From: Escherichia coli
GTDB taxonomy: Bacteria > Pseudomonadota > Gammaproteobacteria > Enterobacterales > Enterobacteriaceae
DNA: 64,000 nucleotides
Direction: 5' to 3' (one strand)
Assembly: GCF_017348835.2 (NCBI RefSeq)
Contig: NZ_CP071375.1
The stretch's first letter is position 1; each line of letters begins with the position of its first letter. The position numbers were made by a program. This document shows, one piece after another, positions 13,801 through 16,800 of the stretch.

Positions 13801-16800
13801 CCGGTCCCATCCGCGAACAAGGCGCAATCACCATCGCCCGTTCCACCACAGAAGGGCTTCCTTTCGCATCCAGAAAAGAGATCAACGCCTCGCCGGTGCC
13901 CAGTTCCTGAATCGCCTTTTCGGTATCAAATGCCGGATTGACCCGCATGGTTTGCGCCGCAGCTTTTACCGCTTTCTGATCTTTGGGCGTAAAAGTCCGC
14001 AAAGCGTGTTGAACGCGATTACCGAGCTGGCCGAGCACGTTATCCGGAATATCGGACGGATTTTGCGAAACGAACCAGACGCCCACGCCTTTTGAGCGAA
14101 TAAGCCTTATCACCTGCTCAATCTTATCCAGCAGTACCTGCGGTGCATCGTTAAACAGCAGATGTGCCTCGTCGAAGAAAAACACCAGTTTTGGTTTCTC
14201 CAGATCGCCCGCTTCCGGCAATTGTTCATACAACTCCGAGAGCATCCACAACAGGCTGGCGGCATACAGTTTCGGCATCTGATAAAGCTTCTCGGCGCTG
14301 AGGATATTGATAACGCCTTTACCGTTGGCATCGGTGCGCATCCAGTCTTTGATATCCAGCATCGGCTCACCAAAGAAGTGTGCTGCGCCTTGCTGTTCCA
14401 GCGACAACAGCCCGCGCTGGATGGCACCAACCGATGCGCTACTGATATTTCCGTACTGATTCTGGAAAGATTTGGCGTTATCGCCGATGTACTGGGTAAT
14501 CGCCCGCAAATCTTTAAAGTCGAGCAGTAACAGCCCCTGATCGTCAGCAATGCGGAAGATGATATTCAGCACGCCAGACTGCACATCGTTGAGATTCAAC
14601 AGCCGCGCCAGCAACAGCGGCCCCAGATCCGAAACCGTCGCCCGCACCGGATGGCCTTTCTCGCCAAAGATATCCCACACCACCACCGGATTGGCATGCG
14701 GTTGCCAGTCATTGACGCCGATATTTTTAAGCCTTGTGAGCAGTTTTTCCGACGCCGTTCCTGCCTGCGCGATACCGGTCAGATCGCCTTTCACATCAGC
14801 CATAAACACCGGCACGCCGATTTCCGACAATGACTCTGCCAGTTTTTGCAGCGTAACGGTTTTACCCGTCCCCGTTGCGCCAGTAATCAGCCCGTGACGG
14901 TTAGCCATTCCCGGCAGTAAAAACAGTTCTGTGTCCGGCGTGCGGGCAATTAACAGGGGTTCGCTCATGAGATTTCCTCCAGTTTCCTGCCTGGAGTATA
15001 GGCAACGGCTGTGCACTCTTCACCGCTAAATTCAGCAGATTGCGAGACGCCTTCCAAAGAGATTTAAGTGCCGGGCGACAGGCACCCGGCAAAGGGATCA
15101 GAAGTCGGCTTTCAGGACCACGCGGTAGCGCGCTTTACCATCGCGTACATGCTGGATGGCGTCGTTAATTTTCGACATCGGGAACAGTTCGGTGGTCGGC
15201 GCAACCTTGCTGCGGGCGGCAAAACGCATCAGCTTACGCAGCTCATAAGGCGTGCCGGTAGCAGAACCAGAGATGCTGCGGTCGCCCGCAATTAACGTAA
15301 AGGCCGGAACAGACAGCGGCGTGAGAACCGCACCGACCGTATGGAAATTACCGCCATAGGTCAGCGCCTCAAAATAAGGCTGCCAGTCGAGGCTGACGTT
15401 CACAGTATTGATAATGAGATCAAACTGCCCCGACAGGGCTTTCAGTGCCTGCGGATCGCGGCTATTCACCACTTTATCGGCACCCATCGCCAGTACTTCC
15501 TGCTCTTTCGCCGGATTAGAACTAAAGGCCGTCACCTCGCATCCCATTGCGTGCAGAAGTTTTATAGCGATATGCCCCAGCCCGCCAATACCAATTACCC
15601 CAACGCGGCTGGTAGCAGTGATATGGTGCATCAACAGTGGTTTAAAGACCGTGATACCGCCGCACAACAGCGGCCCGGTGGACTCGATATCAATATTTTC
15701 TGGCAGTGGAATCACCCATTGCCAGTCCGCACGCAACTTCTCGGCAAAGCCACCGCGATTCATAATCGTCGGCACCGCACCTTGCTCGCAGTTGATCTGA
15801 TTACCGCTAATACAGGCGTCGCAGTGACCACAGCTACGCGCCGTCCAGCCAATCCCGACACGCTGACCGACCTGCAAACCTTTATCCTGCGCGGCGCTCC
15901 CGAGTGCCACCACGCGCCCAATCACCTCATGCCCGGCAACCAGCGGATATTGTGAAAATCCCCATTCGTTATCGATCATCGACAGATCGGAATGACAAAT
16001 CCCGCAGTAATCCACCTGCACTTCAACATCTTGTGGCTTCAGCTCACCGGGATCGTACTCATAAACTTCCAGTTCGCCGCCCGCTTCTTTTGCGGCATAG
16101 CTTTTTATCATCGACATTTTTGGGTCCTTCTCTGGTGTTGTTTGGGAAGTGTAGAGCATGGCAGGGCGGGGTGCCTGGAGTGTGACAAAGGTTACATATC
16201 GCTGAGTGTAATGCTGAAAATTTCAGCACTTAGCGAGGTGGGTGCAAGCTGGCGCTTGCATGGTGGCGTGCGACAGGTATAATCCACAACGTTTTCCGCA
16301 TACCTCTTCAGTGCCGAAGTGGCGAAATCGGTAGACGCAGTTGATTCAAAATCAACCGTAGAAATACGTGCCGGTTCGAGTCCGGCCTTCGGCACCAAGT
16401 TACTAAATTCCTTACAATACAGTTAGTTAGACGATTAAATCTGTCTCTTTTGCCTGTAAGAAATGCTCTGTTATGTCCCTTGAAAAAGCCGCTGTGGTTG
16501 ATAGTGGTAATTGGGATGTTAACTCATAGCGGCGTGTCGTTCCAAGCGTCAAACACGTACTGACTCAACTTGAAAGCTATGACGTAGCCACCGTCTCTAA
16601 ACAATCCCAAAACTTTTAGTGCAGCGCATTTTAGCCCGATGCCCCCATTCTGTCGCCGTCGCGAGACGCCGCAGGGGATAAACAGGTTTATGGTGGTCAC
16701 GGTACTTGCAGACCATATGCAAGCTCTGCCAGCGGTTCGGCCTCGCTCCCCTTGGGTACATGGTCATCCTGATAAGCCTCACTAACTGACATAACCCTGA

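Follow-up and report, generated by a model that had tools for sequence, protein, structure and literature searches.

Does an Escherichia coli genome in which yjgR and ahr lie side by side represent one that has lost the idn genes, or one that holds something else in their place? In the K-12 derivative CJ236 the gene order runs lptG, yjgR, idnR, idnT, idnO, idnD, idnK, ahr, leuX, and the yjgR-ahr interval of 5,126 bp carries idnR-idnT-idnO-idnD-idnK, an order that the first-pass annotation had given and that this genome confirms. According to the part of Bausch et al. (1998, J Bacteriol 180:3704) that is relayed in PMC3251573, the idn cassette encodes the subsidiary system GntII, which serves L-idonate, 5-ketogluconate and gluconate and in which the IdnD/IdnO route leads from L-idonate to 5-ketogluconate and on to gluconate. 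Within the whole 64,000-nucleotide stretch analysed here (termed the window), the same two genes had been described as adjacent, some 130 bp apart and with the idn cluster missing between them, and this description holds: the yjgR start codon (CAT on the plus strand) occupies 14966-14968, the ahr stop codon (tca on the plus strand) 15098-15100, and the spacer between them (14969-15097) is exactly 129 bp. Chance is not at issue for the junction because it is a gene-order fact. The features of the locus are as follows.

13466-14968, minus strand: yjgR, left flank of the junction (ORF list and RefSeq annotation of the identical stretch of strain PE164)
14969-15007, minus strand: shared yjgR upstream segment of 39 nt, common to both alleles
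15008-15097, minus strand: private segment of the idn-less allele, 90 bp (blastn; homologues in E. albertii and Citrobacter werkmanii)
15069-15091, minus strand: terminator-like hairpin (terminator scan and folds)
15098-16117, minus strand: ahr (yjgB), NADPH-dependent aldehyde reductase, right flank of the junction (NCBIfam and annotation)
16313-16397, plus strand: leuX, tRNA-Leu(CAA) (ARAGORN, Rfam tRNA match and annotations)

The nearest complete genomes to the window are those of E. coli PE164 and CT02, and over 13400-16200 the window is 100% identical to PE164, in which both genes carry the names yjgR and ahr in RefSeq. In NCBIfam, Ahr matches the equivalog NF047908 over the full profile (1-335) with 551.6 bits, the cut-off being 470. 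YjgR is a HerA-like/DUF853 P-loop ATPase with 97.9% amino acid identity to K-12 YjgR, and the two proteins stand at 98-99% identity to their K-12 counterparts. The RefSeq product name of YjgR is "helicase HerA-like C-terminal domain-containing protein"; the protein falls below the curated cut-off of every named HerA, CedD and VirB4 equivalog (the best being CedD, at 49 bits against 600), and judged by these profiles its resemblance to HerA/VirB4-type ATPases is one of domain level only. LptF and LptG are encoded upstream of yjgR (ORF list, NCBIfam), and leuX is the right-hand neighbour of ahr in both alleles, a conserved context.

Compared with the K-12 idn locus, the window thus has the same flanks on both sides (lptFG-yjgR and ahr-leuX), and it is collinear with K-12 over the same 39 nt upstream of the yjgR ATG (14969-15007), with one mismatch. 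Past those 39 nt the two sequences diverge fully and homology resumes only at the ahr stop codon, so that one breakpoint lies 39 nt before the yjgR ATG and the other at the ahr stop. Between these points K-12-type genomes carry a cassette of 5,087 bp (idnK / idnD-idnO-idnT-idnR); the window lacks the whole of it and has instead the 90-bp private spacer with its terminator-like hairpin, and the last ~20 nt of its ahr show synonymous changes linked to the allele. When 15000-15100 was used as a query in a sensitive blastn search, the 90-nt private spacer was found in 3,222 of 5,426 complete E. coli genomes, not one of them idn-carrying. The idn-less allele therefore has 90 bases of its own that no idn-carrying genome has, and what we see is a replacement polymorphism and not a deletion scar. 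An 8-nt word, TCTCTTTG, is common to the idn-less spacer and the region downstream of K-12 idnR; we judge this sharing to be compatible with chance (roughly 0.1 for such sequence sizes).

The two states are unevenly distributed in the species. yjgR and ahr are contiguous as in the window in 3,212 of the 5,426 complete genomes (59%), a match to 80% or more of the K-12 idn interval in one place is found in 2,039, and idnD-idnO-like DNA of any kind was detected by sensitive blastn in 2,059 (38%), the other 3,367 having none. The idn-less state is the majority and the K-12 state the minority in the sampled genomes, a collection that leans towards clinical and laboratory isolates. Strains without idn include O157:H7, O111:H8, E2348/69 and ATCC 8739, and those with it K-12, BL21, O104:H4 and VR50; going by the phylogroups of these strains, both states presumably occur within single phylogroups. 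In the E. coli literature idnODRKT is treated as accessory (PMC4216125 among others): the block was present in 83% of pks-positive and 31% of pks-negative genomes and missing from one pks-negative clade of ST95 (PMC8545132), and idnK is missing in ST131 strains JJ1886 and S250 and present in SE15 (PMC5369007). The window shares its lack of idnK/idnDOTR with these described lineages (ST131 H30/H22, the ST95 pks-negative clade, O157:H7), the junction is contiguous and the same spacer present in the O157:H7 genomes as well, and there is no substantive difference that would set the window apart; it is one more member of the allele class. The idn-less junction is an ordinary gene presence/absence polymorphism, and an already known one.

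A recent deletion of idnRTODK from a K-12-like arrangement in the lineage of this strain is what the word "absent" in the first-pass annotation suggests, and the cluster does sit at exactly this place in K-12. The word is right in that the genes are missing at the junction, but it should not be read as deletion from a K-12-like ancestor, because a deletion cannot create the 90 bp of own sequence that idn-carrying genomes lack. E. albertii, moreover, has the spacer with about 95% conservation and C. werkmanii has a homologue of it, and the identical junction recurs in 3,212 genomes of unrelated lineages such as O157:H7, O111:H8, E2348/69 and ATCC 8739. We regard recent deletion as very improbable, and the private 90 bp together with the cross-genus homology of the spacer essentially refute it. 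That the adjacency is an artefact of assembly or of the window has a negligible chance of being true: nothing was found in its favour, the complete genome of PE164 matches the window at 100% identity over the junction, and 3,211 other genomes are contiguous there too. The idn-less state is the commoner of two old alternative alleles in one slot, not a fresh deletion.

It could also be that the idn cluster has moved elsewhere in this genome, or onto a plasmid, and that the pathway has been kept. The window displays 64 kb of the genome, a few idn matches (2-4 places) do lie on plasmids, and a distant plasmid-borne idonate-like operon is known in APEC, that of pChi7122-2, with 46-48% amino acid identity to IdnD/IdnO (PMC3251573); distant functional analogues of this kind would be missed by searches at the DNA level. 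Against such a move, tblastn with the K-12 proteins found no idn gene in the 64-kb window, the only matches being paralogues: IdnT matched gntP (47084-48355, 40% identity), IdnD matched Ahr (26% identity), and IdnO had no match in the window at all. A search with the entire 5.1-kb idn interval gave 5,042 matching places in 5,026 genomes, those beyond the 2,039 matching only the 39 nt adjoining yjgR; at most 16 of the 5,026 genomes can therefore have a second idn site. The 3,367 of 5,426 genomes that have no idnD-idnO-like DNA even by sensitive blastn argue in the same direction. On these population grounds, and with 64 kb in view, the presence of idn elsewhere in this genome is very unlikely, and a relocated cluster with the pathway intact is something we would expect only in a rare case.

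Both alleles are also found outside E. coli. In E. albertii and C. werkmanii ahr and yjgR are adjacent and the spacer is homologous to that of the window along its whole length, and in Citrobacter sp. FP75 the idnK/idnDOTR cassette lies at the same two boundaries as in K-12, with 78.5-83.3% nucleotide identity to K-12 in the idn genes and 82-85% in the flanks. Since the idn genes of FP75 have diverged to a degree like that of the flanks, and since the spacer is homologous across genera, neither allele is a recent import from one genus into another. A clustering of the flanks by allele across species was considered and rejected, as the flanks group by genus instead. In Enterobacter cloacae, Pseudocitrobacter and Enterobacter sp. 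Ag1 the slot holds a 548-aa dihydroxyacetone-kinase-like gene. This comparison draws on a small outgroup sample (one E. albertii and two Citrobacter genomes), and the scan of genome contigs for YjgR homologues yielded, among the matches listed, mostly distant Burkholderiales together with at least nine usable enterobacterial loci, none of them from Salmonella. In Salmonella LT2 idn probably lies beside yjgR.

The direction of change deserves separate consideration. If the cassette were the ancestral occupant of the Escherichia-Citrobacter slot, the short spacer would be a derived allele that later spread, and the identical boundaries in both genera, with the cassette about as diverged between them (78.5-83.3% identity) as the flanks are (82-85%), would agree with this. 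The G+C content of the cassette, however, is below that of the flanks, the short spacer is common to several genera, and the short allele is also that of E. albertii, which is closely related to E. coli; in addition, a predicted ahr terminator belongs to the short allele, as one does to ahr in Enterobacter and Pseudocitrobacter, in which the dihydroxyacetone-kinase-like gene occupies the slot. We consider an ancestral cassette rather unlikely, at about one chance in four. Whichever allele came first, we think it highly probable that the ahr-yjgR slot has two alleles and that the window carries the one without idn, both alleles being old and exchanged by recombination in the flanks; this is the best explanation of the data.

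Evidence for such exchange comes from nine idn-less and nine idn-carrying genomes, for which eight further genomes of each class were picked at even steps down the similarity ranking. Throughout yjgR and ahr the divergence between the two classes equals the diversity within them, except in the last 20 nt of ahr (15098-15117), where it is 0.225 between classes against 0.04-0.06 within, with two fixed differences; the fixed synonymous differences at the end of ahr read GTC/T-CTG...GAC-TTC versus GTG-TTG...GAT-TTT. As the flanking variation matches the allele only in the end of ahr, linkage to the indel extends over no more than tens of bases (~20 nt, in these 18 genomes), which is expected if the alleles have often moved among genetic backgrounds by homologous recombination. 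The cassette itself is unusually uniform: in the same nine idn-carrying genomes its nucleotide diversity is 0.1-0.7% per gene, compared with 4.4% for yjgR and 3.2% for ahr, and lptF and lptG (1.0-1.6%) likewise lie above it. The value for pepA was ignored, being inflated by an IS insertion in one locus. This sample is small and was chosen for flank diversity, so that the figures serve as a lead only; the low cassette diversity may reflect the spread of a single cassette lineage in fairly recent times. Such low diversity is not what a simple "old balanced polymorphism" would lead one to expect, and the observation counts against that form of the idea.

As to how the cassette might have arrived, a mobile genomic island was considered as its source. 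The G+C content of the cassette is 47.3%, compared with 53.8-55.6% in lptF, lptG, yjgR and ahr. In the nine intact idn-carrying loci examined, neither the cassette nor its immediate surroundings have an annotated integrase, transposase or IS, the search for direct repeats or microhomology at the cassette ends returned a longest common word of only 6 nt, and there is no tRNA attachment site at the cassette edge, leuX lying beyond ahr. Low G+C alone fits a mobile island, and with no integrase, IS, end repeats or edge tRNA to accompany it this candidate was rejected. The K-islands and O-islands are the strain-specific segments defined by the comparison of K-12 with O157:H7. The idn cassette resembles them in being present in K-12 and missing in O157:H7, in lying within a collinear backbone, and in having a G+C content below that of its flanks. 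It departs from them in that its ends have no tRNA-proximal integrase, IS or direct repeat, and in that the other state of the slot is a replacement and not an empty site.

The first-pass annotation had pointed to a terminator-like hairpin in the spacer, and the string that it quoted, gccgggcgacaggcacccggc, lies at 15070-15090. On the minus strand, which is the transcribed one, the full structure (15069-15091) has a 9-bp stem and a 5-nt loop, starts 7-10 nt past the ahr stop, and folds at -16.7 kcal/mol (z = -2.76, with 1 of 200 shuffles as good). The stem-loop just past ahr on the transcribed strand is thus as described; the U-tract, by contrast, is interrupted. As in Rho-independent terminators, a GC-rich 9-bp stem with a 5-nt loop stands directly past the stop codon and T-rich sequence comes after it, but here the T-tract is broken (CTTAAATCTCTTT, 15056-15068); its stretch CUUAAAUCUCUUU passes the scan rule of 5 T in 8 bases though interrupted. 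E. albertii has nearly the same hairpin, and C. werkmanii, Pseudocitrobacter and Enterobacter sp. Ag1 have a GC-rich hairpin in the same position with a different stem sequence. The hairpin is best read as a predicted ahr terminator with an imperfect U-tract. An overall structured RNA was rejected on the fold of the whole 129-nt spacer, which is no better than that of shuffles (z = -1.18), and an Rfam scan of 13200-17000 (E <= 1) found no known RNA in 14969-15097, its only matches being leuX and weak REP-type matches near 13400.

The 39 nt that both alleles share contain three further elements, all on the strand of yjgR.

14976-14980, minus strand: GGAGG, Shine-Dalgarno sequence of yjgR
14977-14996, minus strand: inverted repeat CTCCAG-N8-CTGGAG
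14995-15001, minus strand: CTATACT, a -10-like motif

A hairpin over the Shine-Dalgarno sequence is not significant (z = -0.62), and as a structure in the yjgR mRNA it was rejected since its 5' arm overlaps the putative -10 and so would not be transcribed from that promoter. The TTGCCTATACTCC motif is kept in Citrobacter, Enterobacter cloacae and Pseudocitrobacter, and Hafnia and Yersinia have TATACT/TATAAT in the same place. A consensus scan of 14700-15400 found no sigma-70 consensus promoter for yjgR; CTATACT, which fits a -10 consensus of the sigma-S type, is a candidate promoter element for yjgR, as its conservation suggests. In O157:H7 Sakai, one of the idn-less strains, yjgR goes up as cells enter stationary phase (PMC2241611). 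The homology boundary lies 7 nt upstream of the CTATACT motif and may mark the edge of constrained sequence, which would explain why three different inserts end at one point.

From these elements we propose the following picture. In the idn-less allele ahr ends and the hairpin at 15069-15091 probably terminates its transcript; the conserved core of the region upstream of yjgR starts some 60 nt further along. In the other allele, that of K-12 and of about 38% of complete genomes, the 5,087-bp cassette stands in place of the 90 bp past the ahr stop. Escherichia and Citrobacter have each allele between matching boundaries and at a divergence of genus level, which suggests that both are old, and within E. 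coli homologous recombination in the core genes on either side would pass them from lineage to lineage, with no mobile-element mechanism involved. The yjgR -10 element appears to lie within the shared 39 nt, which would account for the tolerance of both alleles. More broadly, the gap between ahr and yjgR may be a long-lived "cassette slot" across enteric genera, filled by a terminator spacer, by idn or by a dihydroxyacetone-kinase-like gene. All occupants of the slot observed so far end at the same conserved yjgR -10 region. That all of this holds jointly, namely a cassette slot, alleles that predate the split of Escherichia and Citrobacter (or were exchanged very early), and a recent spread of a single idn lineage, is a tentative proposal to which we would give somewhat over one chance in three.

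For the strain itself, the claim that it lacks the subsidiary gluconate/idonate pathway at this locus is supported by the junction and by the tblastn search of the window, and the consequences for its phenotype can be predicted from gene content. It would have no IdnD/IdnO route, no IdnT uptake and no IdnK kinase, and it would probably fail to grow on L-idonate or 5-ketogluconate via GntII. Gluconate use through the main GntI system, encoded outside the window, should be unaffected. Another permease gene, gntP, lies inside the window. The relevance of the finding is mainly to annotation and metabolic modelling: a K-12-based metabolic model would wrongly assign to this strain the catabolism of L-idonate and 5-ketogluconate, the transporter IdnT and a second gluconokinase, IdnK. 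The locus is a tidy case of the reshuffling of accessory metabolism in E. coli and leaves general views unchanged. What is mildly new is that the idn-less state is a distinct allele, the commoner one in the collection, with a conserved spacer of its own, and that Citrobacter too has both alleles, between identical boundaries, the cassette being unusually uniform within E. coli. If the joint proposal is true, an idn cassette of low diversity (pi ~0.5%) set between diverse yjgR and ahr (pi 3-4%) would point to niche-dependent or balancing selection on the use of idonate and 5-ketogluconate.

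The interval between ahr and yjgR, which holds a 129-bp spacer in the window and the idn cassette in K-12-type genomes, has a third occupant in Enterobacter cloacae, where the two genes are separated by an open reading frame that runs towards ahr:

8220-9866 of the E. cloacae locus (L006), convergent with ahr: dihydroxyacetone-kinase-like ORF, 548 aa

The ahr-yjgR interval is of similar size in two other enterobacterial outgroups, Pseudocitrobacter faecalis and Enterobacter sp. Ag1 (L007, L008).

Two elements were recorded beside yjgR itself, one upstream of the gene and the other between it and lptG:

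14975-15001 of the window, minus strand, upstream of yjgR: CTATACT motif and inverted repeat CTCCAG-N8-CTGGAG
13378-13446 of the window, between lptG and yjgR: REP-type palindromic element, gtaggcatgataagacgcgccagcgtcgcatcaggc

The CTATACT motif, a sigma-S-like -10 element by its match to the consensus, is kept from Escherichia to Pseudocitrobacter and takes a TATACT/TATAAT version in Hafnia and Yersinia. The inverted repeat overlaps the Shine-Dalgarno sequence, and its folding was computed, without significance. The REP-type element gave weak, sub-threshold Rfam matches to naRNA4 and ES036, and because of it the BLAST search with 13400-16200 returned numerous short additional matches per genome.

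On the other side of ahr, the region 16313-32500 comprises leuX, the gene for tRNA-Leu(CAA), followed by an island remnant without an integrase. The gene content of this island, positioned by offset from the annotation of strain CT02, one of the complete E. coli genomes nearest to the window, is as follows:

16931-17755: AbiJ-NTD4 domain protein
18747-19898: intact IS30
about 21765-29310: fecIRABCDE ferric-citrate operon
elsewhere in the island: a hypothetical gene
elsewhere in the island: IS3/IS1/IS5 fragments
elsewhere in the island: a YmgB/AriR-like gene

Strain PE164, another of the nearest genomes, shows 99.99-100% identity with the window wherever the rest of 14001-64000 aligns and lacks 19521-31595, a 12-kb segment that includes the fec operon. 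The break point lies within IS30, whose transposase gene is annotated as truncated in PE164, and the absence looks like an IS30-adjacent deletion in that strain.

For core genes of E. coli, yjgR and ahr vary unusually strongly among the genomes sampled, which include 16 further E. coli loci (L085-L100). In the nine idn-carrying genomes of this sample, nucleotide diversity (pi) is 4.4% in yjgR (13466-14968 in the window) and 3.2% in ahr (15098-16117), against 1.0-1.6% in lptF and lptG, the neighbours of yjgR. In yjgR and ahr, 100-nt windows reach 9%; by BLAST, 747 genomes share just 90-95% identity with the window across 13400-16200. The terminal Phe of Ahr is replaced by Tyr in VR50 and ECOCN22, both of which carry idn (GATTATTGA); 3 nt separate this site from the stop codon of idnK, which is convergent with ahr. 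In AVS0754, an idn-carrying wastewater isolate, the annotation gives yjgR (L096 6467-7969) an internal stop and marks it as a pseudogene, and the gene therefore appears to be dispensable in at least that strain. As for the high diversity of yjgR and ahr, our guess is that it may stem from their nearness to the leuX integration hot spot.
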